In this document: positions 14,015 through 29,120 of the stretch, piece after piece
Layout of the letters: each line of letters starts with the position of its first letter
How positions within the stretch are numbered: position 1 is the stretch's first letter
Assembly: GCA_964636295.1 (NCBI GenBank)
Contig: CAZWQY010000005.1
Location: 47,496 to 111,495 of the forward strand
Direction of reading: 5' to 3'
Source of the DNA: an uncultured Lentisphaeraceae bacterium
Lineage (GTDB): Bacteria > Verrucomicrobiota > Kiritimatiellia > RFP12 > UBA1067
DNA: 64,000 bases
Made by a program: the position numbers and the translations under genes
Notes under the pieces: generated by a model
What the model saw: the letters and a program-made list of their open reading frames with translations, nothing else
What the model was told of the DNA's origin: nothing
Database searches by the model: none

Positions 14015-15322
14015 CTACTTCTTCTGCCCTTCCGCCAAGTCACGGATGCGGCGCGACGTGCGCACGGCGCAGAACTGCTTGCCGCACATCGAGCAATGGT
14101 CATCGCCATGGTCAACGTCCGAAAGCGCGCGCGTCTTCAGCCAACGCGCCCGCGCGCGTTCGGGATCGAGCGCCGCCGCGAACTGCTCGTCCCAGCAGAA
14201 GGCGCGACGCGCGTCCGCCATCGCGTCGTCCTGCGCGCGCGCGCCCTTCAGGCCGCGCGCGACGTCGCCCGCATGCGCGGCGATGCGCGAGGCAATGCAG
14301 CCGCGATGCACCTCGTCGGCATCGGGAAGCCCCAGATGCTCGGCGGGCGTGACGTAGCAGAGGAGCGAAGCCCCGTAGGTCGCCGCCGCCGTCGCGCCAA
14401 TCGCCGAAACGATGTGGTCATAGCCGGGCGCGACGTCCGTGACGACCGGCCCAAGCACGTAGAAGGGCGCGCCCTTGCAGACCTCCTGCTCGCGCTCCAT
14501 GTTCATCTGGATCTGGTCAAACGGAATGTGCCCCGGGCCTTCGACCATCACCTGCACGCCGCGCGCGCGGCACCGCTCGACCAGCTCGCCCAAGACGTCC
14601 AGCTCCGCGAACTGCGCCGCGTCCGAGGCGTCCGCAAGGCAGCCGGAACGCAACCCGTCGCCGAGGGAGACGGTGACGTCGTGCTCGACCAGAATGTCAA
14701 GAACCTCGTCCCACTTCTCGTACAGCGGATTCTCGCAGTCGTTGGCCATCATCCATTCGGCCATGATCGACCCGCCGCGGCTGACGATGCCCATCTTGCG
14801 CTTCATCGCGAGCGGAATGGCCGCGCGCAGAAGCCCGGCGTGAAGCGTCATGAAATCGACGCCCTGCTCGGCCTGGGCGCGAATGACGTCCAGCAGGAAA
14901 GTGGGATCCATGTGCGGGATGTCGCCTTCGAGGCGCGAAATTGTCTCGTAGACGGGCACCGTGCCGAGCGGACGGTCGCTTGCGTCGAGCATGCCCTGCC
15001 GAATCGCCTTGAGGTCGTCCGACCCGACCGAGAGATCCATGACGAAATCGGCCCCCGCCTTGAGCGCGATCGCGAGCTTCTCCAACTCGTCGCCCTTACC
15101 CGAATGCGTCACGCTCCGGCCGAGGTTCGCGTTGATCTTCGTGCGGAAAAGCCGCCCGACACCCACGGGGCGCGCATTCGTGTGGTGGATGTTCAGTGGA
15201 ATCACGGCCTCGCCGCTCGCGACGGCGGCACGCACGGCCTCCGCGTCAACTCCCTCGTCTGCCGCGACGATCTTCATCGCCTCGGTCACAAGGCCCTTGC
15301 GGGCCGCCTGCAACTGCGTCAT
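14015..15322 (-). CDS. thiC: Phosphomethylpyrimidine synthase
   Basis: TKINANLG, MDLS, GTVPVYE, GVDFMTLHAG, SRGGS, SLGDGLRSG, VEGPGH, YVTPAEHL, CSMCG...C Fe-S motif. Confidence 0.96.
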   Translation of the reverse strand: MTQLQAARKGLVTEAMKIVAADEGVDAEAVRAAVASGEAVIPLNIHHTNARPVGVGRLFRTKINANLGRSVTHSGKGDELEKLAIALKAGADFVMDLSVGSDDLKAIRQGMLDASDRPLGTVPVYETISRLEGDIPHMDPTFLLDVIRAQAEQGVDFMTLHAGLLRAAIPLAMKRKMGIVSRGGSIMAEWMMANDCENPLYEKWDEVLDILVEHDVTVSLGDGLRSGCLADASDAAQFAELDVLGELVERCRARGVQVMVEGPGHIPFDQIQMNMEREQEVCKGAPFYVLGPVVTDVAPGYDHIVSAIGATAAATYGASLLCYVTPAEHLGLPDADEVHRGCIASRIAAHAGDVARGLKGARAQDDAMADARRAFCWDEQFAAALDPERARARWLKTRALSDVDHGDDHCSMCGKQFCAVRTSRRIRDLAEGQKK

Positions 15323-15440: not shown

Positions 15441-15920
15441 TCAGACGGCGACGTACGGGTCGCCGCAGAGCGAACAGATCGCGCCGTCATGCACGGGCGC
15501 GCCGCAGTTCGGGCAACGCTTCTCAAGAACTTCGCCGCAAAAGGCGCAGAACGTGCCGCCGACCGGATCGGCCTTCGCCCGGTCCGGCAAAAGGAACGTG
15601 CGGCCCTCGACCTCATAAGGATGGTTCGACGGACAGTGCGGATTCGGACAGAAGCCGCGCACGGCCTCCAGCGGCAGACGATGCGCGGGAAGCGACGGCG
15701 AGACGGCCGTCGGCTCTTCCGGCGGCGTCAGTTCGACGCCAAACTTCTTCGCGAGCTTTTCGATGACCTCGTCGTTCAGCTTCGTGCCGTCGCCCTGCTC
15801 GAACATGGAGAGCGCCGACTGCTTGCAGCCGACCTCGGCGGCCACGACGCTCTGCGAAAGCTTCGCCGCGCGCCGTGCCTCCTTGATCTTCAGGCAAACA
15901 ACTGGATTGAGTTCTGTCAC
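15441..15920 (-). CDS. XRE-family HTH fused to double zinc-ribbon-like Cys clusters
   Basis: IKEARRAAKLSQSVVAAEVGCKQSALSMFEQG HTH, then CPNPHC, CAFC, CPNC, CSLC. Confidence 0.85.
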   Translation of the reverse strand: MTELNPVVCLKIKEARRAAKLSQSVVAAEVGCKQSALSMFEQGDGTKLNDEVIEKLAKKFGVELTPPEEPTAVSPSLPAHRLPLEAVRGFCPNPHCPSNHPYEVEGRTFLLPDRAKADPVGGTFCAFCGEVLEKRCPNCGAPVHDGAICSLCGDPYVAV

Positions 15921-15928
15921 GGGCGGAT

Positions 15929-15957
15929 ATTATGGACTTTATTTTCCCGCCTGACAA
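15929..15957 (-). promoter_or_regulatory. Sigma70-like promoter of the XRE/zinc-ribbon gene (leaderless)
   Basis: TTGTCA-17 bp-CATAAT on the minus strand, ending 8 nt before the GTG start. Confidence 0.65.
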
Positions 15958-15965
15958 GGGGGCTG

Positions 15966-16046
15966 TTATCAACACTATCAACAGATTTATCAACTTGTAA
16001 ACAAGATTATCAACTTGTGAACACGAATTTGTTGATATGTTGATTC
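15966..16046. repeat. Dense array of 8 DnaA-box-like 9-mers
   Basis: Forward: TTATCAACA 15966, CTATCAACA 15975, TTATCAACT 15987, TTGTAAACA 15995, TTATCAACT 16007, TTGTGAACA 16015. Inverted: ATATCAACA 16030-16038, GAATCAACA 16038-16046. Confidence 0.75.
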
Positions 16047-16050
16047 TCTT

Positions 16051-16105
16051 TATCACAAACCATTTAAAAACCGCTCATTCGATTCTAACACGGAAAGTCC
16101 ATACT
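16051..16105 (+). promoter_or_regulatory. Pho-box-like promoter 1 (porin)
   Basis: Hexamers at about 11-bp period (TATCAC, TTTAAA, GCTCAT, TCTAAC), a 10-nt spacer, then CATACT. The 42-bp block 16076-16117 is nearly identical to 17527-17567. Confidence 0.65.
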
Positions 16106-16154
16106 CTGCGCCAGACAAACAACAAGAGATAAAAGTAAACGAAGCAAGAAGAAA

Positions 16155-17486
16155 ATGAAACGAAACAGCATAAAACCACGCACGTTCCTCGCCGCGTTCG
16201 CGCTCGCCGCCGCGACGGCCGCCGTCGCGAGCGGCACGAACGACCTTTCCGTCACGGCCGGTGCCGAGGTGCGCCTCCGTTATGACGTGACGGATCACCT
16301 GCCCAACGCCAAGCGCGGCGAAGCGGACGACTCCAACTACGCCCGCATCCGCATTCGTCCGTGGATTCGCACGACCTACGCGGACTACGGCATTTTTCTT
16401 CGGCTCTCGGACGAGTTTCGCCACTACAACCGCCCGGAATCGAATTCGTCCAAGCAACGCTGGCCGGACGTTCTCTTCATCGACAACCTCTACTTCACGG
16501 CGAACAGCCTCTTCGACGGCGCGCTTGACCTGAATGTCGGGCGTCAGGACATGGCGTTCGGCGCGAAGCGCATTCTCTCGGACGGCGTCGGCGGCGATGG
16601 CTCGCGCGCGGCGTACTTTGACGCGCTACGGCTCACCTGGCACGCGGACGAGGCGCGGACGCTCGACGCCTTCGCCCTCTACCAGGCGAAGAAGGACTGG
16701 ATGCCGACGCTCGGAAAGGAGCACGAGAACGGCAAGGAACCGCACGCCTATGACACGACGGGCTACAGACAGGACGAGTTCGGCGCGGGCCTCTACTGGC
16801 AGGATCGCGCGCACAAGGACTTCGGCTATGACGCCTACTACGTGGCCAAGCGCGAAATCCGCAACCGTGACTCAAAATACCGGAGCGAGGGCGGGCACGC
16901 CGACACGCACACGTTCGGCGTCCGCTTGCTGCCGCGCTTCAGCGAAACGCTGAGCGGCGAAGTCGAATTCGCCGGACAGGCCGGTTCGCACAACCTCTTT
17001 GCGGGACAAGCCTACGGCGGACTCACCTACGCGCCCAAGGCCGACTGCAAGCCGACGTTCACCGGCGCGTGCTGGGTTCTCTCCGGCGATGACGAAGGCG
17101 GACGCGGCAAGCACGCCTGGCACGCGGTCTTCAACCGCGAGACGGGACTGGGCGAATCCATCGCCCCGATGTACGAGAAGTACAACTACACGAACCTCAT
17201 CTATCCGCACCTCGCCTTCGGCTGCAACGTCGCCTCGTTCTCGTCCGTCAAGTTCCAGGCCGGCCCGATGTACACGGCCGTTCAGGAAGACGACGCCGGC
17301 AGCTTTCGCGGTCTGTATGCGCAAGTCAAGTACACGGTCAGCCCCGCCAAGCTCCTCGGTATCGATCTCCTGCACGGCGGCAAGTTTTCCCTGCAGGGCG
17401 AATACTTCGGCAAGGGCGACTACTTCAAGGACGGTTCCGACCACGACGCGCTCTTCGCCCGCGCCGAACTGGCCTGGAACTTCTGA
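16155..17486 (+). CDS. Outer-membrane beta-barrel, alginate-export (AlgE-like) family
   Basis: Signal peptide, RIRIRPW, LFIDNLYF, VGRQDMAFGAKRILSDG, FDALRLTW, amphipathic strands and C-terminal ARAELAWNF. Confidence 0.75.
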   Translation: MKRNSIKPRTFLAAFALAAATAAVASGTNDLSVTAGAEVRLRYDVTDHLPNAKRGEADDSNYARIRIRPWIRTTYADYGIFLRLSDEFRHYNRPESNSSKQRWPDVLFIDNLYFTANSLFDGALDLNVGRQDMAFGAKRILSDGVGGDGSRAAYFDALRLTWHADEARTLDAFALYQAKKDWMPTLGKEHENGKEPHAYDTTGYRQDEFGAGLYWQDRAHKDFGYDAYYVAKREIRNRDSKYRSEGGHADTHTFGVRLLPRFSETLSGEVEFAGQAGSHNLFAGQAYGGLTYAPKADCKPTFTGACWVLSGDDEGGRGKHAWHAVFNRETGLGESIAPMYEKYNYTNLIYPHLAFGCNVASFSSVKFQAGPMYTAVQEDDAGSFRGLYAQVKYTVSPAKLLGIDLLHGGKFSLQGEYFGKGDYFKDGSDHDALFARAELAWNF

Positions 17487-17501
17487 CGTCTGCCCGAATG
17501 G

Positions 17502-17556
17502 TTTAACGAACGTCTAACCCAAATGACATTCGATTCCAACACGGAAAGTCCATACT
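17502..17556 (+). promoter_or_regulatory. Pho-box-like promoter 2 (pstS)
   Basis: TTTAAC 17502, TCTAAC 17513, TGACAT 17524, TCCAAC 17535 (exact 11-bp period), a 10-nt spacer, CATACT 17551. Confidence 0.75.
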
Positions 17557-17590
17557 GTGCGCAGACACATAAGGAAAGGATGAACAAAAG

Positions 17591-18481
17591 ATGAACGCAA
17601 CAGCAAAGTCAATTCTCCTCGCACTCGGCGCGGCCGTGGCAACCCTGGCCGCCACGGCGGCAGAACGTCTGGAACTCAATGGCGCAGGCGGCAGCTTCCC
17701 GGCCCCACTCTACCAGAAGTGGGCCTACGCCTACACGCAGTCGGGACTCGGCGCAAAGGTCAACTACCAGTCCGTCGGATCCTCCGCCGGCATCAGCCAG
17801 ATCAAGGCCAGCACGGTGGATTTCGCGGGCACGGACGCGCCGCTTTCGGACGCCGCGTGCCAGGAAGCGGGACTTGAGCAGTTCCACATGGTCTCCGGCG
17901 CCGTCGTCCCAGCCGTCAACCTGCCGAGCGTACCGAACGGAAAGCTGACGCTCGACGGCGCGACGCTTGCGGACATCTACCTCGGCAAGATCACGCGCTG
18001 GAACGACGCGCGAATCGCGGCGCTCAATCCGTCGCTGACGCTTCCCGACCTGAAGATTACGGTCGTGCATCGCGGCGACGGTTCGGGCACAACGCACATC
18101 TTCACGACCTACCTCTCGTCCGTCTCGTCCGAGTGGAAGGCGCGCTTCGGCGCATCGACGCAGCTGAAGTGGCCCTGCGGAATGGCCGGGCAAAAGAATC
18201 CCGGCGTGTGCAACGCCGTCCGCCGCGTCAAGGGCGCGATTGGCTACACGGAATACACCTTCGCGCTGGAGTCAAGGCTGAATGTCGCTCGCCTCGCCGT
18301 GAACGGCAAGGTCGAGGAGCCGACGGCGGACGAATGGCCCATTCTCGGCAAGACCTACATCCTGACGCGCAAGGACACGCCCGCCGAGAAGAAGGCCGCG
18401 CTCAAGGGCTACTTCGACTGGTGCTTCGCCCACGGCGGCCCGACGGCCCAGCAACTCCACTACATTCCCGTCACGCGCTGA
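17591..18481 (+). CDS. pstS: Phosphate ABC transporter substrate-binding protein (shortened)
   Basis: GAGGSFPAPLYQKW, NYQSVGSSAGI, VDFAGTDAPL, VVHRGDGSGTT, GAIGYTE, WPI. Confidence 0.9.
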   Translation: MNATAKSILLALGAAVATLAATAAERLELNGAGGSFPAPLYQKWAYAYTQSGLGAKVNYQSVGSSAGISQIKASTVDFAGTDAPLSDAACQEAGLEQFHMVSGAVVPAVNLPSVPNGKLTLDGATLADIYLGKITRWNDARIAALNPSLTLPDLKITVVHRGDGSGTTHIFTTYLSSVSSEWKARFGASTQLKWPCGMAGQKNPGVCNAVRRVKGAIGYTEYTFALESRLNVARLAVNGKVEEPTADEWPILGKTYILTRKDTPAEKKAALKGYFDWCFAHGGPTAQQLHYIPVTR

Positions 18482-18517
18482 TTCACCGCGCGAGCAAGAC
18501 GGGTCAAATGGCCCTGC

Positions 18518-18554
18518 AAATTTCAGCCCTGCTGAAACAGCAGGGCTGAAATTT
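18518..18554. terminator. 17-bp perfect stem-loop after pstS
   Basis: AAATTTCAGCCCTGCTG-AAA-CAGCAGGGCTGAAATTT, with T/A-rich flanks on both sides. Confidence 0.7.
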
Positions 18555-18588
18555 TGAAAATAAAAAAGAAATGTTCTCATGCATCCCC

Positions 18589-18617
18589 TTGTATTTTCAC
18601 ATGATTTCAACTATACT
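18589..18617 (+). promoter_or_regulatory. Sigma70-like promoter of the dinJ-yafQ-type operon
   Basis: TTGTAT-17 bp-TATACT. SD GAAAGGA precedes ATG 18648. Confidence 0.6.
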
Positions 18618-18647
18618 ACACCAGTTTTCACGAAAGGACACTTGATT

Positions 18648-18917
18648 ATGGCAAATCTCACTATTTCCATGCCGGCAGCTGACAAGGCCGCCATTTCCGC
18701 TTTCTGCGATGCGACGGGCTTCACCATTTCCTCGCTCTTCAACGTCTTCACGAAGGCCGTCTTGCGCGAACGCCGCCTTCCCTTTCAAATCATCCTGCCG
18801 GAAGTTCCGAATGCCGAGACCCGTGCCGCGATGGAAGAAGGCGACCGCATCTCCCATGATCCAACTGCGAAGGGGTATACCGACCTGAATGAATTCTGGA
18901 AGGATCTCGACAAATGA
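18648..18917 (+). CDS. RelB/DinJ-family antitoxin
   Basis: MANLTISM...LFNVFTKAVLRERRLPF...PNAETRAAMEE...GYTDLNEFWKDL. Overlaps the toxin start (ATGA). Confidence 0.85.
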   Translation: MANLTISMPAADKAAISAFCDATGFTISSLFNVFTKAVLRERRLPFQIILPEVPNAETRAAMEEGDRISHDPTAKGYTDLNEFWKDLDK

Positions 18918-19192
18918 AATACACGGTTAAGAATACTTCTACATTCAAGAAGGACTACAAGCGCGCCAAAAAGCGAGGTCTTGATCTCGAAAAACTTCGA
19001 CGCACCGTTGAACTTCTCGCGGACGGCAAGCCTCTCCCCGCGTCCCTGCGCGACCACGCTCTGACGGGCAATTGGGCACAGCATCGCGAATGTCATCTTG
19101 CACCTGACTGGCTTCTCATCTACCAGATTTACGAAAACGTCCTTGTCCTTGAATTGACGCGCACAGGTTCACACGCCGACCTTCTCGAATAA
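18914..19192 (+). CDS. YafQ-family (RelE superfamily) mRNA interferase toxin
   Basis: FKKDYKRAKKRG, DHALTGNW, RECHLAPDWLLIY, RTGSHADL. Confidence 0.9.
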   Translation: MKYTVKNTSTFKKDYKRAKKRGLDLEKLRRTVELLADGKPLPASLRDHALTGNWAQHRECHLAPDWLLIYQIYENVLVLELTRTGSHADLLE

Positions 19193-19197
19193 ATTGA

Positions 19198-20424
19198 TTA
19201 GACCCTTAGAGCATCATGCAATTCATGCAGGATGGACTTGGCTGTTCCAATGCCGTACCGATCCGCGACAGTCAACAGGTCTGCATCAGAAATGTTTTTC
19301 TGCTTCCCATTGACGGACAATTGGTGAACCCCGGCCTGCGCACTCCACGGATCTTCACTCGGAAAATCAGACCCCATTAAGTCGTAGGCGGGTGCAAGTT
19401 CCCACATTTCGCTTTCTACCGTATCATTTCCTTTATTGGCCAAAGAACGAAGGCGGAACGAGAAGTTCTTCGTGTGATCGTCAAACTCACCCGTCAGGAT
19501 ATTGAACGCCATACGGCGAAACAGTTGCTCCTGCGCCTCATATCCAAGACCCAGTTCGTCGGCTACCGTGAACAGTTGTTCGTAACGCCTGTATTCCTGC
19601 GGCGTCTCAGCCGGTAAATGAGCCATCGCCGACAGCGTCGCCAAATGGTGGCGGACACCTCCCTCTCGATCAAACCGCTTCGTCATAAAGTGCTTGAGTC
19701 CATCGAGTTCATAAAGACACGATTCGCTCATCTCAATGCCAGATGCCAACGCTTGACAATAATGAGCATATTCAGTTTCTCCGCGCCATGGATATTCCTT
19801 CCGCGTAAACTTGATGATCCAATGCTCGTAGCCTTCTGGCAACTCACAATCTCCTAAGAGGAACGTATTTTCAATTCGATTCCAGCCAATGACCGCTTTT
19901 GCCTGCGCACCACCAGCGGACGATCCGAGGCGGATGATTTCACGCAAAGCATCCTCGCCATGCACCGTCGCCAATTCGCCGTTTAAGACCCGACGAGCGG
20001 ACTCGACAAGTTTGCGCATATCTACAACTGTCGGATATCCGCCTGGACTACGATCAGGTTCGTAAGTCAAGGCTCCTAACGTCCGCTTTCCCAAATACGC
20101 CAATCGGTCAAGCGGCGTAATTTCATCTCGTCTCAATCCATGCTCAATGAGCCAATGGTCTATTAATCCCGTGCCAAATGTATCTGGAAGCGAATCCGCA
20201 AAAATCGGCGGCAACCCATTATAAGCCGCATATGGCAAATCACCAAAGACATACGGTTCGGAGCGAAGCGGCATCATCAGCGGCGCAATCTCAATGCCAG
20301 ACCTGAGAAACGCCTTGTCGTAGCGAAAGGCATAAACGCCCCGCCGAGGAGATTCGACAAGCGTCCCCACGCGCCATCCCCACAGCGAGACATTAAGACG
20401 CGCAACATGTCGAAACACCGTCAT
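19198..20424 (-). CDS. HipA-family toxin kinase with N-terminal couple domain
   Basis: FADSLPD.FG, LAYLGKRTLGAL, SSAGGAQAKA, WIIKF, TKRFDR, DDHTKNFSF, APAYDL. More AT-rich than the flanks. Confidence 0.9.
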   Translation of the reverse strand: MTVFRHVARLNVSLWGWRVGTLVESPRRGVYAFRYDKAFLRSGIEIAPLMMPLRSEPYVFGDLPYAAYNGLPPIFADSLPDTFGTGLIDHWLIEHGLRRDEITPLDRLAYLGKRTLGALTYEPDRSPGGYPTVVDMRKLVESARRVLNGELATVHGEDALREIIRLGSSAGGAQAKAVIGWNRIENTFLLGDCELPEGYEHWIIKFTRKEYPWRGETEYAHYCQALASGIEMSESCLYELDGLKHFMTKRFDREGGVRHHLATLSAMAHLPAETPQEYRRYEQLFTVADELGLGYEAQEQLFRRMAFNILTGEFDDHTKNFSFRLRSLANKGNDTVESEMWELAPAYDLMGSDFPSEDPWSAQAGVHQLSVNGKQKNISDADLLTVADRYGIGTAKSILHELHDALRV

Positions 20425-20759
20425 ACTCTTTCCGCTCCCTTCGGCTGCCGCACCAGTGCCAGATGACGCCTCTGCGGCGAGGCTCGCTGGCGTTTCTTCG
20501 GTTCAACGCGATCAAACAAGGCATCGTCTATTTCCGGCGGAGCAATTCCCAAAATCCAGTCTGTTCGGCGAAGTGATCGGCAGACCTCGAGAAGCGTGAC
20601 CGTCGAGGCGTTTTTTCCTCCTTCAAGATTTCGAAGCGCCGTCAGGGAAATCCCGCTGCGCGCCGCCAAGGTTTCCAACGACAAGTTTGCCGCCAACCGT
20701 GCCGCACGTACGCTTTCACCCAAAGCCGCCAACATTTCGCTCCGTGTCTGATAAATCAT
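20421..20759 (-). CDS. HTH (XRE/HipB-like) antitoxin
   Basis: LGESVRAARLAANLSLETLAARSGISLTALRNLEGG. Stop overlaps the hipA-type start. TGCTATAAT at 20791-20799. Confidence 0.82.
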   Translation of the reverse strand: MIYQTRSEMLAALGESVRAARLAANLSLETLAARSGISLTALRNLEGGKNASTVTLLEVCRSLRRTDWILGIAPPEIDDALFDRVEPKKRQRASPQRRHLALVRQPKGAERV

Positions 20760-20892
20760 AACAGCCTTTATAAAAACAGTAATTTCCAATATTATAGCAT
20801 AACTGTTTTCTTAAAAGCAATCATCTATCTGATATTTTCCATGAACTCAGAATAAATGAATCCTTTTTATTTCCCTGTACGCGCCGCACACC

Positions 20893-20947
20893 TTTAACGC
20901 GATTTTCATCGGGCGCTGATTTGGCTCTAACAGGAAAAGCGCATACT
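20893..20947 (+). promoter_or_regulatory. Pho-box-like promoter 3 (pstB, leaderless)
   Basis: TTTAAC 20893, TTTCAT 20904, GCTGAT 20915, TCTAAC 20926 (11-bp period), a 10-nt spacer, CATACT 20942, ATG 8 nt later. Confidence 0.75.
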
Positions 20948-20955
20948 GTGCGGCG

Positions 20956-21717
20956 ATGAACCGGAACTACAAGATTGTCACGCGAAACCTGAATTTCTTC
21001 TACGGCGAGCATCAGGCGCTGTTCGACAATGGTCTCGCCATCGAGGCCAACAAGATTACGGCCGTCATCGGCCCTTCCGGATGCGGCAAGTCAACCCATC
21101 TGCGCATCTACAACCGCATCTACGAACTCCATCGCGGCCAGCGCGCAACAGGCGAAGTCTTGCTCGACGGACAGAACATCCTCGCACCCGACGTCGATCT
21201 TCTCGACTTGCGCCGCCGCGTCGGCATGATCTTCCAGAAGCCGACGCCCTTTCCGATGAGCGTCTTCGACAATGTCGCCTATCCGCTCCGCCTCCACTTC
21301 AAGATGAGCCGAACCGAACTCGCACACCGTGTCGAGGAAGCGCTTAAAGGCGCGGCACTCTGGGACGAGGTCAAGGACAAGCTCAACGAACCCGGCACGG
21401 CCCTTTCGGGCGGACAGCAACAACGCCTCTGCATCGCCCGCGCAATCGCAGCCGAACCCGAAGTCTTGCTGATGGACGAACCCACGAGCGCAATCGATCC
21501 CGTCGGCACGCTGAAAATCGAAGAACTGATGGCGCGTCTCCGCACACGCTTCACGATTGTCATCGTCACGCACAACATGCAACAGGCCTCGCGCATCTCC
21601 GACGTGACGGCATTTTTCTACAAGGGCCACATCGTCGAGGTCGGCCCGACAAAGGAAATCTTCACCCACCCCAAAAACAAGCAAACGGAAGACTACGTCT
21701 CCGGGAGATTCGGCTGA
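20956..21717 (+). CDS. pstB: Phosphate ABC transporter ATP-binding protein
   Basis: [62 protein letters not shown]. Confidence 0.95.
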
Positions 21718-21718
21718 C

Positions 21719-22087
21719 ATGACAATGAAAATTCATTTTGAGGAGGCCCTCGCGGCCGTCGAGAAAGACCTTCACGAAAACGCGGAACGCGCCGAAACGG
21801 CCGTTCGGACAGCCCTGCGTGCCCTCGCGAACGAAGACGCGGCACTCGCCGATTCCGTCATCGAAGGAGACACGGCAATCGATCTCGCCGAAAACGCGAT
21901 CGAGGAAAAGTGCCTCGACATCTTCGCGCTCTATCAGCCCGTGGCGACTGATCTCCGCCGCATCGTCACAATTCTCAAGACGAACGGACAGATCGAACGT
22001 CTTGGCGACCTTGCGACGAACATCGCCGAAGACGTCATTTACCTGAAACGCGCGTCAATCGTCCGCCATGACGTCCTGAAAAAGTAA
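21719..22087 (+). CDS. phoU: PhoU-like protein, single repeat (122 aa)
   Basis: D.AID..E..IEEKC, QPVATDLRRI, IERLGDLATNIAEDVIYL. About half the usual length. Confidence 0.8.
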   Translation: MTMKIHFEEALAAVEKDLHENAERAETAVRTALRALANEDAALADSVIEGDTAIDLAENAIEEKCLDIFALYQPVATDLRRIVTILKTNGQIERLGDLATNIAEDVIYLKRASIVRHDVLKK

Positions 22088-22108
22088 CGCGCGACCTGCG
22101 CGGAACAA

Positions 22109-22777
22109 TCAGTAGTTCCGCGCGAGAATTTCAGACGGAAGAAGGTAGTCTTCGCCGTTCTTGTGCGAAAGGCCACGCTTCTTGAGTTCCTCGATCACCA
22201 CGCCCGAAACAATGTTCGCGTTGTCCGCAAACAGCTTTTCGAGCAAGGCTCGCCGCCGCGCCAGTTCGCCGTTCGCCTCATTCGCAACGAGGACGCTCTC
22301 AAGAACCTGCGCACGACGAAAGCGTCCGTTCTTCTCGGCCGCGTCACGCCCTTCGCGCAGAACCTCAAGGACGTGATCGCGCGTCTCTCCCTCAAAGCGG
22401 TCGTCCAGTTCCGCATTGCGGTCAATGAGCGCGATTTTATTGGACGCTTCGCCTTCCGCATTCTTCGCCAGAAGTTCGCCGACCTTCGCAAGTTCGTCGC
22501 CCGCGTCCTGAAACTTCTTCCGCAGCACCGCAACTTCATTCTGCAACGCGACATTGGCGGCACGAAGGGACGCGATTTCCTTTTCAAGTTCATCCTTGGC
22601 CTGGCGCAAAGACGAAATCATCTCGTCCTGCTCGGCCTTGTCCGCCGCCAACGACTCGACGACGGCCTTCTGGACATCGATCTCCTCAGGCTCTTCGAAC
22701 ACGGCCGCCTCTTCGACCTTTTCCTCTTCTTCGGAGTGGGTCGGTCGATTCAGAAACTCACTGATGTCCATTGACAT
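22109..22777 (-). CDS. Hypothetical acidic coiled-coil protein
   Basis: Start MSMDISEF after SD GAAGGGAG, overlapping the methylase 3' end. E/K/L heptad-rich. The ORF-track extension to 23149 overlaps the methylase and is not used. Confidence 0.75.
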   Translation of the reverse strand: MSMDISEFLNRPTHSEEEEKVEEAAVFEEPEEIDVQKAVVESLAADKAEQDEMISSLRQAKDELEKEIASLRAANVALQNEVAVLRKKFQDAGDELAKVGELLAKNAEGEASNKIALIDRNAELDDRFEGETRDHVLEVLREGRDAAEKNGRFRRAQVLESVLVANEANGELARRRALLEKLFADNANIVSGVVIEELKKRGLSHKNGEDYLLPSEILARNY

Positions 22778-24075: not shown

Positions 24076-25170
24076 TCAGTTGATCCGAAGCGGCATCAGC
24101 ACGTAGAGGAACGGAATCGAGCACTTGATCACGGCCGGCGAATGTCCGTCCGTCAAGTTCATGGTCACCTCATCGTCGTCAATCGACTTGAGGCAGTCCA
24201 TCACGTAGGACGGGTTGAACAGAATCTCGATCTTCTCGCCGGCGTACTTGATCGGCACTTCGTCCTTCGCCTCGCCGATGTCGGACGCGGCCGACGTGAC
24301 GGTGAGCTTTCCTTCCGAGAAGATGAGCTTCGTCGAATGCGCCTCGTCCATCGTCATGACGCTCGCGCGATCCAGCGCATCCAGCAACAGCTGGCGATCG
24401 ACCTCGATGCGCTCCTTCGGCTCGACGGGAATGACCTGACGGTAGTTCGGGTAGGCGTCGTCCATCAGCTTCGAGTAGATCAGCACGCTTTCGAGCTTGA
24501 AGCAGATCTGCGACTTCTGAACCATCATCGAGAGGTCGCCCTCGCCGTTCAGCGAACGCTGAAGTTCGCCCACGGCCTTCGACGGCAGGATGATGTCCTT
24601 CTCCGCGTCCTTCGGAAACTCGATCTCCTGCTCGACGAGAGCCAGACGGCGACCGTCCGTCGCGACCATCGTCAGCTTCGAGTCCTTGAAGCTCAGGAGA
24701 ACACCCTTGAGCGTCCGGCGCGTGTCGTCCTGGCTCGCCGCGTAGGAGACCTTGCGCAGCATGTCGCGGAACGTCGCCTGCTGAATCGTGTAGACGAACG
24801 CCTCCTCGTCCTGCGGCAGCTTCGGAAACTCGGATTCGGGAAGGCCCGCGACCTTGAACTTCGCATGCCCCGCGCAGATCGTCGCGCGATCCTTCGCGTC
24901 CGTCTCGAACTCGACCTCGCCCTCGGCCACTTTCGAGATCGCGTTGAAGAGAAGCTTCACGGGAATCGTCGTGCTGCCTTCCTCAAGAGCCTCGCACGGA
25001 CAGACGGCCTTGATCGAGATGTCGAGGTCGGTTGTCGTCATGACGAGTTCCTGACCCTTGACTTCCAGGAGAACGTTCTGGAGAATCGCGAGCGAAGCCT
25101 TTCCGCCAACGATGTTCTGGACGGACTTCAGCCCTTCGAGGAACTTGGAGCGAACGATCTTGAATTTCAT
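24076..25170 (-). CDS. dnaN: DNA polymerase III beta sliding clamp
   Basis: MKFKIVR, ILQNVLL, TTDLDISI, TRRTLKGV, VATDGRRLA, YPNYRQVIP, FNPSYVMD, YVLMPLR. Start at ATG 25170. Confidence 0.97.
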   Translation of the reverse strand: MKFKIVRSKFLEGLKSVQNIVGGKASLAILQNVLLEVKGQELVMTTTDLDISIKAVCPCEALEEGSTTIPVKLLFNAISKVAEGEVEFETDAKDRATICAGHAKFKVAGLPESEFPKLPQDEEAFVYTIQQATFRDMLRKVSYAASQDDTRRTLKGVLLSFKDSKLTMVATDGRRLALVEQEIEFPKDAEKDIILPSKAVGELQRSLNGEGDLSMMVQKSQICFKLESVLIYSKLMDDAYPNYRQVIPVEPKERIEVDRQLLLDALDRASVMTMDEAHSTKLIFSEGKLTVTSAASDIGEAKDEVPIKYAGEKIEILFNPSYVMDCLKSIDDDEVTMNLTDGHSPAVIKCSIPFLYVLMPLRIN

Positions 25171-25200
25171 TGTCTTTTCCTTCTGATGCGTCGTGTCGTT

Positions 25201-25437
25201 GAATTGTATCAAATACTACTAATTAAAGATAGAGTGATTTTTATTAGTATTAGGTTTGTTAATTGTGTTGACAAGTCGCGCACACCCCTTTAAAAACAGG
25301 CGGAACATCGCCTTCGCCCTGTTGACGGCACATTCGACATCCTAATGACGGACGTTGACGAATCGTCGTGCGCTGTTCATTCCTGTTCATAACTTGCCAA
25401 GTTGTCTTCACCCTGTTGTCAGTTCGTCTGCCAGTTG
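25201..25437. other. Candidate oriC unwinding region between dnaA and dnaN
   Basis: AT-rich 25201-25265. On the minus strand, box TTGTCAACA (25266-25274) is followed by trio-like TAATACTAATAA (25241-25252). Further box-like 9-mers at 25320 (CCGTCAACA), 25374 (GAATGAACA) and 25384 (TTATGAACA). Confidence 0.7.
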
Positions 25438-26856
25438 TCAATCGAGGTTGTCCTTGAGCGAACAGCCGAATTCGGCCAGAACTTCCTTGAGTATCGACTT
25501 GAGATCTGGTTCGACGTCGAGCCGTTTTTCGATGTTCTTGACGCCATGGAGAATCGTCGCGTGCGTCTTGCCGAAGGAACTGGCGATTTCCGGAAGGCTT
25601 CGCGTCGTGTACTTGCGTGAGATGTACATGGCCATCTGGCGCGGCGTGACGAGGGACTGCGTTCGCTCGGCGGAGAGAATCTGGTCGATCGAGACGTCGA
25701 ACCGCTTTGCGACGGACTGCTGAATCTCTTCGACGGTCAGCTTGCGCAGGGACTTCTCCTTCTCGATGTAGTCGCGCAGCATATGTGTCAGCACGTCGTT
25801 CGTGAGCGTCGTCGTCGATTCGACCATGCGGAAGATGCGGACGCGGTTCAAGGCCCCTTCCATCGCACGCACATGGCTCTTGATCGTGTCGGCGATGAAT
25901 TCGAGCGCGCTGTCGGGAATGGACGGCACCATCGTCTCTGACTTCTTCTTCAGAATCGCGAGGCGCGTCTCGTAGTTGGGCGACTCGATTTCCTGCACCA
26001 TGCCGCCCTCGAAGCGCGAGATGAGGCGCGTCTCGATGGACGGCAGATTCTTCGGCGCGACGTCGGATGTCATGACAATCTGGCGTTGCGCTTGCTGAAG
26101 GGCGTTGAAGGTGTTGAAGAACTCTTCCTGAAACTGCTTGCCCTTCTGAAGGAACTGCACGTCATCGACCATCAGGAGATCCATCTGTCGATAACGCTTG
26201 CGGAAACTCTCGAGGTTGTTGTTTTGAAGGGCGTTCACGTATTCGTTCAGGAACGTCTCGGCCGTGAGGTAGCAGATGTTCAGCGCGGGATTCTTCTTCT
26301 TGAGCGCATTGCCGATCGCCTGCATGAGGTGCGTCTTGCCAAGGCCCGTGCCGCCGTGGATGAAAAGCGGATTGTAGCCACTCTTGCCGGGCGTCGCGAC
26401 GACGCCTTGTGCGGCGGCAAGCGCCCAGCTGTTCGACTTGCCGCTCACGAAATTTTCGAACGTGTACTCCTCGTTCAGCGGCATGGTCGAGGCAAGCGTC
26501 GAGGCCCTGGCCGATGTGCGCGGCGGATTCGGCGGCGGAGCGGGAATTTCCACTGGAACGACGACCGGCGGCTTGGCCCGTTCGCTTGTGCGAAACTCAA
26601 TGTCGATCGATCCTTCCGACGAAACGAGCTCAAGGCACTTCTTCAGCTTGTCCGAATACTTGTCGCGCAGGAAGTCTGCCGTGTAGGCATTCGTGAGAAA
26701 AATGACGAAGCGACCGTTTTCGCGCGTGACGGACGTGATCGTCGAGAAATAGCGCTCGACCTGACCGCGTTCTTCGGCGGACGACAGTGTGGAAAGGTAG
26801 ATTTGCATCGCCCTTTCCCACGTTTCCTTTGATTTGATGTCGATGGTTTCGCTCAT
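25438..26856 (-). CDS. dnaA: Chromosomal replication initiator DnaA
   Basis: YTFENFVSG.SN, YNPLFIHGGTGLGKTHL, LMVDDVQFL, EEFFNTFN, RLISRF, VRAMEGAL, PRQMAMY. Start at ATG 26856. Confidence 0.98.
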   Translation of the reverse strand: MSETIDIKSKETWERAMQIYLSTLSSAEERGQVERYFSTITSVTRENGRFVIFLTNAYTADFLRDKYSDKLKKCLELVSSEGSIDIEFRTSERAKPPVVVPVEIPAPPPNPPRTSARASTLASTMPLNEEYTFENFVSGKSNSWALAAAQGVVATPGKSGYNPLFIHGGTGLGKTHLMQAIGNALKKKNPALNICYLTAETFLNEYVNALQNNNLESFRKRYRQMDLLMVDDVQFLQKGKQFQEEFFNTFNALQQAQRQIVMTSDVAPKNLPSIETRLISRFEGGMVQEIESPNYETRLAILKKKSETMVPSIPDSALEFIADTIKSHVRAMEGALNRVRIFRMVESTTTLTNDVLTHMLRDYIEKEKSLRKLTVEEIQQSVAKRFDVSIDQILSAERTQSLVTPRQMAMYISRKYTTRSLPEIASSFGKTHATILHGVKNIEKRLDVEPDLKSILKEVLAEFGCSLKDNLD

Positions 26857-26883
26857 TTTTCTCTGACACTCGTGAATCCTAAC

Positions 26884-26979
26884 ATAATACCATAAATTTG
26901 ACGCACGTGGCAAAAGGAGAAATCAACGCCTGTCTTCAAGTTATCAACATGAGATGTTTATAACTTGAGAGTATCCACG
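26884..26979 (-). promoter_or_regulatory. dnaA promoter with upstream DnaA-box-like sites
   Basis: TTGCCA-18 bp-TATTAT with extended TGG. TTATCAACA at 26941, inverted TTATAAACA at 26955-26963, GTATCCACG at 26971. Confidence 0.6.
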
Positions 26980-27002: not shown

Positions 27003-28898
27003 TTAGACATGCCCGCGCTTGATGAGGACGGCGAGCACGGCGATGTCGGCCGGATTGACGCCTGGAATGCGGCTTGCCTGGGCGAGGGTTTCCGGGCGAT
27101 GCTTCTTCAGTTTTTCGCGGCTCTCATAGCGAACGGCTGTGCATTTGTCATAGTCCAGCCACTGTGGCAGAACGAGGGCTTCGTCCTTCTTGGCTTGTGC
27201 GGCGGCCTTTTCCTCTTGCGCGATGTACGGGGCATACTGATGCATAATCAACGCTTCTTGATTTATCCGCCCTTCGCGTGTGATTTGGTCGCACGAGCGC
27301 GTGTCAAGTTCCGTTTGACTCTTTCTCCCTCGTTGTGCGAGATCAGCGACTTTGGCTTGAATGGTTGTCCATTCGTCTTCAATGGCGGCAAGGGTTGCCT
27401 TTGGTAAAATGTCCACGCGCTTGGCGGCGGCGAGCAGACGATAACAGGCGTTGTCCTGGCGAAGAATCAAACGTCGCTCAGCGCGGCTTGTAAACATGCG
27501 ATAGGGTTCATCCGTACCCTTCGTGACGAGATCGTCGATCATCACGCCGAGATAGGCATCCTGTCGGCTTAAGATGAATGGAGATTCTTTTCGGACGGCG
27601 AACACGGCATTGATCCCTGCGAGAATGCCCTGTCCTGCCGCTTCTTCATAGCCGGTTGTCCCGTTGATCTGTCCCGCAAAGTAAAGTCCAGCAATTCGCT
27701 TCGATTCAAGGGTATGGCGAAGTTCACGCGCATCAATGCTGTCGTATTCGATGGCATAGGCGTACGCCAAGAACTCCGCTTCTTCAAGTCCTTCAACGGA
27801 ATGAACCATGTCACGCTGAACCGTTTCAGGAAGCGAGCAACTCAATCCATTCGGATAGATGATGTCCCCACGGCTGTCTTCAGGTTCAAGAATGACATGG
27901 TGATGAGGTGCATCCGAAAATCGGACGATCTTATCTTCGATGCTGGGACAGTAGCGAACGCCCGTTCCACTGATTTGACCACCATAAAGAGATGACTTGT
28001 CGAGGTTCGAGCGGATGATTTCGTGCGTTCGGCTATTCGTCCGCGTCATCCAGCAAGGAAGAATGGGCAGATTGTTCCATGTGGAACACAGGTGGAGGCG
28101 GTCAGATGTGGCTGTTCCACGTGGAACACAGGTGGAGGCGGTCAGATGCGGTTGTTCCACGTGGAACACAGGCGGATGAGAACCCGTGTTGGAAAAATCC
28201 GTATGTTCCACGTGGAACAGCGGGCGTGGTGTGTCTCCATCTTGCCGAATACAGCGCGAAAAGTCGCAGGTCGAGGCCTTGAGACGCGGAGGTGTACCTG
28301 TTTTTAGACGAATCAACGCGAATCCGAGATCTTCAAGATTGCGCGAGAGCAGATTGACGGCGGGACGGCCATCGCCGCCGCTTTCTTGGCTTTTGTCACC
28401 GATCCAGATCCGTCCACGGAGAGTTGTCCCGGTCGTCAGAATGACGGTTTTCGATGAAATGATTCCGTTGTTTTCGGTCTGAACACCCGTGATGCGTTGC
28501 GCGGCATCCGTCCGAATGCCAATGACGGCATCTTCAAGAACTGTCAGATTCTCCTGTGCCGCGATGACAGTCTGCATTCGTTCGGCGTATTCCTTCTTCG
28601 CACACTGGCAACGTGTCGCCCAGACGGCCGGCCCACGACTTCTGTTGAGCGTTTTCGCCTGAAGGGCGGTTTGGTCGGCGTTCACGCCCATTTCGCCGCC
28701 AAGGGCATCCAGTTCCGAAACAAGGTGGCTCTTGGCAAGACCGCCGATTGACGGGTTGCAAGGCATTCTGGCAATTGCGTCACGCTGTGTGGTGACGAGC
28801 AAAGTGCGTGCCTTCATGCGCGCGGCGGCGAGAGCCGCCTCGACGCCGGCGTGTCCACCGCCCACGACAAGAACCTCAAAGGCATCCATCAGTTTCAT
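27003..28898 (-). CDS. mnmG: tRNA uridine-5-carboxymethylaminomethyl modification enzyme MnmG (GidA) with an internal parS-derived insertion
   Basis: [73 protein letters not shown]. Start at ATG 28898, 6 nt after TGCTATAAT. Confidence 0.96.
28073..28219. repeat. Cluster of four parS sites (16-bp palindromes) inside mnmG
   Basis: TGTTCCATGTGGAACA 28073-28088. Perfect TGTTCCACGTGGAACA at 28113, 28153 and 28204. The first three sit in a 40-bp tandem unit. Confidence 0.92.
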
Positions 28899-28904
28899 GA
28901 CCGA

Positions 28905-29120
28905 ATTATAGCACATTCTCAACAGGATTGTGAACAAAAAAGATACAGAGATTATGCAACAGATAAAAGGCTATTTCTTCATAAATAATGCGGAATATTT
29001 ATGTTTTTGTCATTTTTAATTTTTGTCAAGGGAAAAGATGTCAAATCATGTCTACACTTATTGAAAAGTTATCAACAACGCCTCTCCAACTTGCTCTTTT
29101 TAGCCGAATTATGCTATACT
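28905..29120. promoter_or_regulatory. AT-rich divergent promoter region with DnaA-box-like sites at the gene-strand switch
   Basis: -10 TGCTATAAT (minus, 28905-28913) and TGCTATACT (plus, 29112-29120). TTCTCAACA 28916, TTGTGAACA 28928, TTATCAACA 29069. Very AT-rich at about 28965-29030. Confidence 0.65.

Follow-up and report, generated by a model that had tools for sequence, protein, structure and literature searches.

The intergenic array at positions 15966–16046 of the window, by which we mean the whole 64-kb (64,000-nucleotide) stretch of DNA analyzed here, is a real and deeply conserved, origin-linked cluster of putative lineage-specific DnaA boxes at the promoter of a regulator gene. The regulator combines an XRE-type helix-turn-helix (HTH) with a double zinc ribbon (XRE-DZR), and in about 90 related species-level genomes the orthologous gene is preceded by an array of 3–8 boxes. 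The explanation that we consider probable is that the array is an origin-proximal DnaA-box cluster that couples XRE-DZR transcription to the status of DnaA, and titrates DnaA as a side effect.

The window is a chromosomal segment of high GC content (about 63%), and its closest relatives are gut and rumen Kiritimatiellia MAGs, some of which are mislabelled as Lentisphaerae or Verrucomicrobia. The array is contained in an intergenic region of 37% GC (15921–16154). To the left are the XRE-DZR gene (15441–15920, minus strand) and thiC (14015–15322, minus strand), the latter sitting behind its own TPP riboswitch. To the right are a porin-like gene (16155–17486, plus strand) and pstS (17591–18481, plus strand), and, as regards the Pho boxes noted earlier for the porin, what is seen beside the array is an element of about 37 nt common to the promoters of these two genes. 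A toxin-antitoxin pair and hipA follow to the right of pstS, and beyond them lie a conserved gene that we call X (about 22112–22681, minus strand) with rlmL next to it, dnaN (24076–25212, minus strand), dnaA (25438–26913 as the longest open reading frame, minus strand, with the true start probably an ATG at about 26856), and mnmG (27003–28937, minus strand). Gene X, which lies between rlmL and the array in the ancestral gene order, matches no Pfam or NCBIfam family.

From the window sequence, pattern matches and shuffles, the cluster consists of eight 9-mers in 81 bp, placed as an earlier note on this DNA had described them. Six are arranged head to tail on the plus strand and fit the pattern YTRTVAACW, namely TTATCAACA at 15966, CTATCAACA at 15975, TTATCAACT at both 15987 and 16007, TTGTAAACA at 15995, and TTGTGAACA at 16015. 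The two copies on the minus strand, ATATCAACA (16030–16038) and GAATCAACA (16038–16046), had been counted under the same pattern, but they are looser and fail it at positions 1–2. In the orientation of the XRE-DZR gene, the order is two 'forward' boxes and then six 'reverse' ones, which are aimed at the promoter. The 20-bp tandem duplication noted previously (15980–15999 and 16000–16019, plus strand) is present, although it is imperfect, with 80% ungapped identity and one indel, and receives no score from TRF. Each unit contains one TTATCAACT and one TTGT(A/G)AACA box, and the duplication provides one box pair more than in most relatives, which carry four reverse boxes. A weak candidate for a ninth, degenerate box, TTTATCACA (16050–16058, plus strand), can be seen by eye, and TTATCAC(C/A) variants akin to it are found in the arrays of the most divergent relatives.

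A scan for clustering, as had been proposed, finds TTATCAACA-like sites to be concentrated in the array and around dnaA and mnmG when compared with shuffled sequences. The YTRTVAACW pattern has 15 matches in the 64-kb window versus 2.7 expected, and none of 100 shuffles reaches 15; with up to one mismatch to TTATCAACA there are 13 matches versus 3.2 expected (0/100 shuffles reach 13), twelve of which fall either in the array or between 25266 and 29077. The recurrences reported at 25266, 25384, 26941, 28928 and 29069 are all seen, and there is an additional site at 26955. When the 234-bp AT-rich spacer is shuffled alone, its five sites with up to one mismatch compare with 0.14 expected, and its nine sites with up to two mismatches with 1.4 expected; 0/5000 shuffles reach either number. 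TTATCAACA agrees with the universal DnaA box TTATCCACA at 8/9 positions, and the canonical TTATCCACA and TTATNCACA do not occur anywhere in the 64-kb window.

Several readings of the array as another kind of element were rejected. The only Rfam match is at chance level (mir-90, E = 0.52), which gives no reason to see an RNA or riboswitch, and a predicted DNA hairpin (z = −3.8) simply follows from the presence of inverted boxes. A plasmid or phage iteron, or a tandem-repeat element, is not indicated, as TRF reports nothing, there is no rep gene, and the array is chromosomal beside dnaA-dnaN in relatives. Nor does it resemble parS or another palindromic centromere site, the boxes being asymmetric and unlike TGTTNCACGTGAAACA.

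The XRE-DZR gene encodes a protein of 159 amino acids with matches to Pfam HTH_3 (1.3e-11) and DZR (1.7e-5), in which an N-terminal XRE-type HTH (residues ∼6–60) is connected by a disordered linker to a double zinc ribbon at the C-terminus. In the family alignment the HTH is almost invariant and eight cysteines are invariant. No specific NCBIfam family is matched, with the aMBF1, HipB and MqsA-like models scoring far under their cut-offs, and all 992 homologues are unnamed. The quality of the AlphaFold model is moderate (pLDDT 71), and in Foldseek searches the HTH alone finds matches, to Mbf1, HipB, SinR and 434 Cro. An alignment-based scan for homologues returned 108 relatives, all belonging to one Kiritimatiellia clade and none coming from lineages with a canonical DnaA.

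A predicted sigma-70-type promoter (15929–15957, minus strand) precedes the gene, with TTGTCA (15957–15952) and CATAAT separated by a 17-nt spacer (10/12 matches to consensus). There are 8 nt between TTGTCA and the first box, in agreement with the earlier description of an array starting 9 bp from the −35 element. The −10 element ends 8 nt ahead of the GTG start codon, so that the XRE-DZR mRNA is predicted to be leaderless. This promoter is kept in the relatives as TTGNNA, a 17-nt spacer and CATAAT (the latter in 52/68 loci), and the distance from the −10 element to the start is 7–9 nt in 59/68 loci. Because the downstream neighbors vary (thiC here, and a DUF711 or metalloenzyme gene in other genomes), the gene is probably monocistronic.

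The position of the array relative to the replication origin is best appreciated from the region around dnaA. The cumulative GC skew turns at about 25 kb of the window, where it has its minimum, and the dnaA-dnaN spacer contains a likely unwinding module of oriC at 25238–25274 (minus strand), which bears out the claim that the origin is about 9 kb from the array. In the basal unwinding system (BUS), DnaA on a box pair oligomerizes onto DnaA-trios, and the layout has at least three DnaA-trios (3′-NAN-5′, consensus 3′-GAT-5′) at ≤16 bp after a single box or a pair of boxes, and then AT-rich DNA (PMC8287927). Read on the minus strand, the module in the window consists of TTGTCAACA, cAATTAACA, an AACC spacer, the trio-like repeats TAA TAC TAA TAA AAA, and an AT-rich stretch, and more degenerate boxes in the same orientation are present at 25320–25392. 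The dnaA-dnaN spacers of about 50 relatives are similarly organized, with two abutting TT(A/G)TCNACA boxes, a 3–4-nt spacer, TAA/TAC/TAG repeats and AT-rich DNA. Because this spacer has the BUS layout, DnaA would have to recognize the TT(A/G)TCNACA-type family of motifs, and the segment 25238–25274 is likely to be the unwinding site of oriC.

Two further groups of boxes are found in the origin region. Upstream of dnaA there is a convergent pair at 26941–26963 (TTATCAACA, 5 nt, TGTTTATAA) that belongs to a conserved AAGTTATCNACA-N5-TGTNGATAACTT element, and upstream of mnmG, between 28916 and 29077, there are TTCTCAACA (28916), TTGTGAACA (28928) and TTATCAACA (29069), with box clusters at the same place in four related loci (L153, L182, L191 and L213). 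The commonest 8-mers upstream of dnaA are TATCAACA/TTATCAAC, seen 75 times among 51 loci. In 1.18 Mb of sequence from 66 related loci, clusters of at least three boxes are found only upstream of the XRE-DZR gene and in the metalloenzyme-mnmG, mnmG-dnaA and dnaA-dnaN spacers. Measured by the lineage consensus, which comes from the spacers beside dnaA in more than 50 relatives, the array has, at the level of predicted sites, the box density of a B. subtilis-type DnaA-box cluster outside oriC, for which several consensus sites in about 100–200 bp of intergenic DNA are expected.

The array itself does not have the layout of a BUS, and we reject it as the origin. The boxes proximal to the promoter read TGTTGATAA towards the AT-rich promoter, opposite to the arrangement in the dnaA-dnaN module, and the forward boxes lead into reverse boxes rather than into trios. 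We have also considered that the array could be a third sub-region of a multipartite oriC, where DnaA oligomerizes and from which it loops to the dnaA-dnaN module, and which is needed for initiation. No larger box cluster exists in the origin region, the boxes fall into two opposed sets as they do in DnaA-oligomerization regions, and synteny of the array with dnaA-dnaN is seen in more than 75 loci; moreover, bipartite origins split by dnaA are known from B. subtilis and H. pylori (PMC3479198). However, it has no DnaA-trios or AT-rich unwinding element of its own, its promoter-proximal boxes are wrongly oriented for a BUS, its distance to the unwinding module ranges from ∼0.3 to >10 kb among the relatives with flips in orientation, and it is wholly absent from six species. 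We therefore regard a role as an essential part of oriC as highly improbable, and the array is separate from the likely unwinding module at 25238–25274.

The protein expected to read these boxes has changed in a corresponding way. The window dnaA product is by its sequence a bacterial DnaA, scoring 466 bits against TIGR00362 (cut-off 344) and matching Pfam Bac_DnaA and Bac_DnaA_C, with the AAA+ domain III and the domain IV HTH. The recognition helix of domain IV reads G-K-T-H-A-T-I-L-H where the canonical helix has GG-R-D-H-T-T-V-L-H. Base-specific contacts of E. coli DnaA are reported to be made by R399, P423, D433, H434, T435 and H439 (PMC2533591, PMC7561715). In an alignment to E. coli domain IV (1J1V), D433 is replaced by T and T435 by A, R399, P423, H434 and H439 are kept, and one residue is deleted in the turn before the recognition helix. 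The altered GK-THAT helix is present in all 68 loci with a Kiritimatiellia-type (K-type) DnaA, and the canonical helix in 66 outgroup loci. Beside K-type dnaA genes, position 6 of the boxes is A in 169, T in 77, G in 58 and C in 18 cases, as compared to C in 78, A in 39, G in 7 and T in 3 beside canonical dnaA genes. At the level of the lineage, position 6 has gone from C to A>T>G, D433 to T/S/K/N, and T435 to A, along with the one-residue deletion, so that the alteration of the helix tracks, among the sequences compared, with loss of the usual C at position 6 of the box. The Pontiellaceae have a similar DnaA helix, yet in one of their loci (L079) there is a TTATCCACA near dnaA, which suggests that the helix change relaxes specificity and is not a strict re-specification.

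Taken together with the rank of the 8-mer upstream of dnaA and the composition of the unwinding module, the helix change makes it very probable that the TTATCAACA-type 9-mer is the DnaA box of this lineage. Lineage-specific changes of the box accompanied by changes in DnaA domain IV have parallels in the 12-mer of T. maritima (PMC10316083) and in the Helicobacter and cyanobacterial box variants, although the change in Kiritimatiellia is small, amounting to a relaxation at position 6. Full-text literature searches gave nothing relevant for TTATCAACA, and found neither a paper on Kiritimatiellia origins nor a description of the position-6 and helix change. The variant box and its helix should be useful for predicting origins in Kiritimatiellia, where tools based on TTATCCACA will miss the boxes.

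The conservation of the array was examined in 70 loci with XRE-DZR relatives (49–96% identity) and in 23 more obtained from the alignment query. At least three boxes are present upstream of the XRE-DZR −35 element in 59 of the 68 loci that have enough upstream sequence, the typical array having two forward and four reverse boxes, and arrays are likewise kept in the 23 additional relatives, at identities down to 47%. The gap between the promoter-proximal box and the −35 element is exactly 8 bp in 49/62 loci, and in 24/68 loci there is an extra box inside the promoter spacer. The window genome is without an in-spacer box, which by this comparison it has lost. The rigid 8-bp phasing to the −35 element, together with the in-spacer box of many relatives, favors control of the promoter.

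The ancestral gene order is metalloenzyme/mnmG/dnaA/dnaN/rlmL/X/[array]/XRE-DZR, and the distance between array and dnaA is about 3.0–3.9 kb in 47/54 loci, which on this reconstruction puts the ancestral position of the array ∼3.4 kb downstream of the origin, past dnaA-dnaN-rlmL-X. In the window and its nearest relative, an insertion of about 7 kb and lower GC content (the porin, pstS, toxin-antitoxin and hipA genes) parts X from the array, accounting for its position 9 kb from the origin in the window genome. The distance to the unwinding module is thus ∼9 kb here, as compared to ∼3.4 kb in the typical locus, ∼0.3 kb in L212 and >10 kb in L216. The array has remained at the XRE-DZR promoter through inversions (L172, L185, L203, L206 and L212) and insertions (L174, L176 and L205), and its orientation is flipped in L172, L185, L203 and L206. 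The prediction that array and gene would be found together in relatives holds well, with the array lying beside dnaA-dnaN in every one of the 54 loci that show dnaA, and in the 23 further relatives. Six species retain the XRE-DZR gene and its promoter and have no array; no dnaA cluster is seen in these six loci, within 10 kb of upstream sequence in L171, L211 and L214, and within 0.2–1.1 kb in the other three. The array is retained away from dnaA in two relocated loci, L216 and L204. The link between loss of the array and relocation represents perhaps three independent events, as judged from the loci compared. That retention of the array is tied to proximity to the origin also favors an origin-related role.

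These patterns bear on the possibility that the array is purely a DnaA-management locus, acting by datA-like inactivation or titration or by DARS-like reactivation, with its position at the XRE-DZR promoter being incidental. In nearly all relatives it places 6–8 consensus boxes a few kb from oriC, on the side that is replicated early, it is missing only where the gene no longer adjoins the dnaA cluster, and an enrichment of DnaA boxes close to the origin is expected for titration (PMC12371093, PMC3245932). However, the 8-bp gap (49/62) and the in-spacer box (24/68) are hard to explain without a promoter function, the array follows the XRE-DZR gene and not the 3′ end of gene X after inversions and insertions, and it is kept away from dnaA in L216 and L204. 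We consider a locus of this kind unlikely. The hallmark of datA is an IHF-binding site among the boxes with IHF-dependent hydrolysis of DnaA-ATP, and that of DARS is a core of three DnaA boxes in a specific arrangement that promotes release of ADP. Opposed sets of boxes do occur in the array. E. coli datA and DARS1/2 are like the array in being non-coding DnaA-box clusters whose position relative to oriC matters (PMC5010248, PMC12371093). Unlike it, they require IHF/Fis, whether for hydrolysis or for exchange of the nucleotide, and do not act as promoters for a dedicated regulator, and the array is much nearer to oriC than they are.

A different concern is raised by the uniformity of the boxes. 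Those found in the array and ahead of dnaA vary far less than those of the unwinding module; array boxes have A at position 3 in 93% and at position 6 in 91%, whereas boxes of the unwinding modules have G at position 3 in 58% and about equal shares of A, G and T at position 6. As a pattern among predicted sites this fits a contrast between high-affinity sites, regulatory or titrating, and low-affinity origin sites that depend on cooperativity. A second protein with a preference for TTATCAACA would explain it equally well, the obvious candidate being XRE-DZR itself. In that case, the boxes would be the operator through which XRE-DZR regulates its own gene, as well as dnaA through the TTATCAACA pair, and their likeness to DnaA boxes would be either coincidental or reflect competition. 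In favor of this, array and gene always move as one and the phasing to the promoter is rigid, the HTH is near-invariant across the family, the array and dnaA-upstream boxes are uniformly TTATCAACA-like in contrast to the degenerate boxes of the unwinding module, and the AAGTTATCNACA-N5-TGTNGATAACTT element upstream of dnaA is an inverted repeat of fixed spacing, a type of site used by dimeric HTH proteins.

Autoregulatory operators of XRE proteins are two-fold symmetric with fixed spacing, and usually lie over the promoter of the regulator. The array is different in each respect, at least as predicted. It consists mostly of direct repeats of an asymmetric 9-mer that occurs in either orientation at intervals of 8–12 bp, the two boxes of a convergent pair are 2–6 bp apart in the arrays versus 5 bp at dnaA, and in the window genome the boxes are upstream of the −35 element and not over the promoter. 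Furthermore, the gene and its promoter occur without the array in six species, boxes with A at position 6 are also seen beside dnaA in K-type lineages lacking an XRE-DZR gene within 10 kb, and a match to the universal DnaA box at 8/9 positions in an origin region is unlikely to be a coincidence, particularly as DnaA's own helix is changed at base-contacting residues. An operator for XRE-DZR is accordingly less likely than a DnaA-box cluster, and we rate it as quite unlikely. The earlier view that DnaA-box-like sites are tied to both the origin and the XRE-DZR promoter is supported by the synteny in relatives, the 8-mer upstream of dnaA, the unwinding module and the altered helix.

We infer DnaA binding, the sign of regulation, the effect of titration and the role of the regulator from sequence patterns, and the following scheme for the DnaA-box cluster should be read in that light. 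The array would provide high-affinity DnaA sites in the Kiritimatiellia box dialect, with TTATCAACA in place of TTATCCACA. The closely packed boxes would be filled by DnaA monomers which then oligomerize, and we note that E. coli DnaA favors closely spaced pairs of sites (PMC11317965). With the last box fixed 8 bp before a strong sigma-70-type −35 element, occupancy by DnaA would set the level of XRE-DZR transcription, and in the approximately one third of relatives with an in-spacer box this would be expected to result in repression. The 6–8 boxes would also soak up free DnaA, as the locus is copied directly after initiation, following the same titration logic as the oriC-proximal DnaA-box clusters of B. 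subtilis. Closeness to oriC would be of importance should the cluster also act as a buffer for free DnaA right after initiation.

Clusters of this general type have precedents, and the earlier suggestion of an undescribed cell-cycle module is overstated, since origin-proximal DnaA-box clusters that regulate their neighbors are already known (PMC3245932). In B. subtilis, DnaA-box clusters regulate neighboring genes and restrain initiation (PMC3245932). Those outside oriC (for example at sda, ywlC, yydA and trmE-jag; PMC3245932, PMC4447404, PMC2533591) are intergenic and multi-box like the array, mostly origin-proximal and in promoter regions. DnaA acts there as a transcription factor on the adjacent gene and the clusters jointly restrain initiation, properties that for the array are predicted from sequence, and the gene under control at sda encodes a small checkpoint regulator. 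The Kiritimatiellia array departs from these in being written in the TTATCAACA dialect and presumably read by a DnaA with a changed helix, in being a single dominant cluster kept with one gene, encoding an XRE-HTH and double zinc ribbon protein, throughout the class, and in its phasing at a fixed 8 bp to the −35 element of a transcript predicted to be leaderless. In P. aeruginosa the gidA promoter is regulated by DnaA boxes ahead of it (PMC13438810), and this oriCII/gidA promoter and dnaA autoregulation resemble the array in having origin-region DnaA boxes directly upstream of a promoter. The promoters of this group serve a housekeeping or partition operon and their boxes belong to the origin, whereas the array has a lineage-specific regulator as its target and is separable from the origin.

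We speculate further, as a tentative possibility of rather low probability, that XRE-DZR is a class-wide regulator coupled to initiation in gut Kiritimatiellia, either an Sda-like checkpoint output or an origin antagonist, that is paired with the remodelled DnaA. In the Sda-like form, a leaderless mRNA switched by DnaA occupancy of the array could report initiation status to division or metabolism; in the antagonist form, XRE-DZR and DnaA could both use the TTATCAACA boxes, at the XRE-DZR promoter and at that of dnaA. In either form the remodelled DnaA (D433T, T435A and the one-residue deletion) would read the relaxed box.

The Kiritimatiellia are abundant in the gut and rumen and for the most part uncultured, and to our knowledge almost nothing is known of their replication control. 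The locus provides a probable oriC and unwinding module for the group, and points to one conserved gene, retained at the origin in about 90 species, as a candidate for control by DnaA acting as a transcription factor. A by-product is a variant DnaA box, as predicted here, with a matching change in the recognition helix. Should the regulator prove to connect initiation with some other process, it would represent a new output of the DnaA cycle; otherwise, the array would still be a clean natural example of an origin-proximal DnaA-box cluster beyond the model organisms.

The region between rlmL and the array of DnaA-box-like 9-mers contains a conserved gene, here called gene X (∼22112–22681, minus strand), encoding a protein of about 200 amino acids that has no Pfam or NCBIfam family and ends in ...GEEYLLPSEI..R.Y. 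Orthologues are present in most of the loci L152–L213 (L-numbers denote sequence loci of relatives), and gene X is absent from the most divergent clade (L215 and L287–L294). Only in the window genome and its closest relative, L151, is gene X separated from the array by an insertion of about 6–7 kb (∼16050–22100), which is of lower GC content (51–60%) and carries a porin-like gene, pstS, a RelE/ParE-type toxin-antitoxin pair (18579–19192), hipA (19198–20424) and another ORF. The promoters of the porin-like gene (16070–16115) and pstS (17520–17565) share an element of about 37 nt on the plus strand, CATTCGATTC(T/C)AACACGGAAAGTCCATACT(C/G)TGCGC. Exact copies of the 9-mer AAGTCCATA are confined, across the whole window, to these two promoters and that of the XRE-HTH/double-zinc-ribbon (XRE-DZR) gene; it could be a site for a common regulator or a lineage-specific extended −10. 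On the other side, an ordinary TPP riboswitch (RF00059; 15316–15420, minus strand) separates the stop codon of XRE-DZR from thiC. It is matched at 53.6 bits, slightly below the gathering score of 54.3, and shows that thiC has a control element to itself.

Several public bins named for unrelated taxa include Kiritimatiellia contigs with the array/XRE-DZR locus, and two bins each hold two different copies of it, a pattern that suggests contaminated bins or a mixture of strains. The loci concerned are L008/L019, L072/L178 and several titled Faecalibacterium, Muribaculaceae, Methanomethylophilaceae and others.

Boxes also lie on both sides of dnaA. Within the dnaA-dnaN spacer, a run of degenerate boxes in one orientation (25320–25392) precedes a probable oriC unwinding module (25238–25274) in which two abutting boxes are followed by the spacer AACC, TAA TAC TAA TAA AAA and AT-rich DNA, a layout kept in about 50 relatives. 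Upstream of dnaA is a convergent box pair at fixed spacing, AAGTTATCNACA-N5-TGTNGATAACTT (26939–26965), which is conserved across the clade and is probably a site of dnaA autoregulation. The adjacent mnmG gene (27003–28937) is transcribed in the same direction as dnaA in the window and most relatives and is divergent from it in a few (L167, L177, L194 and L209), indicating small inversions adjoining the origin.

DnaA itself (25438–26913) departs from its counterparts elsewhere in the recognition helix of domain IV (residues ∼445–455), where Kiritimatiellia proteins, in the window and among L071–L216, have G-K-(T/S/K/N)-H-A-T rather than GG-(R/K)-D-H-T-T. In E. coli numbering, D433 is replaced by T and T435 by A, and one residue is missing. 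We found no description of this remodelled helix in the literature searched. It is common to all 68 of the 68 Kiritimatiellia-type loci, and alongside it position 6 of the box is relaxed (A>T>G>>C).
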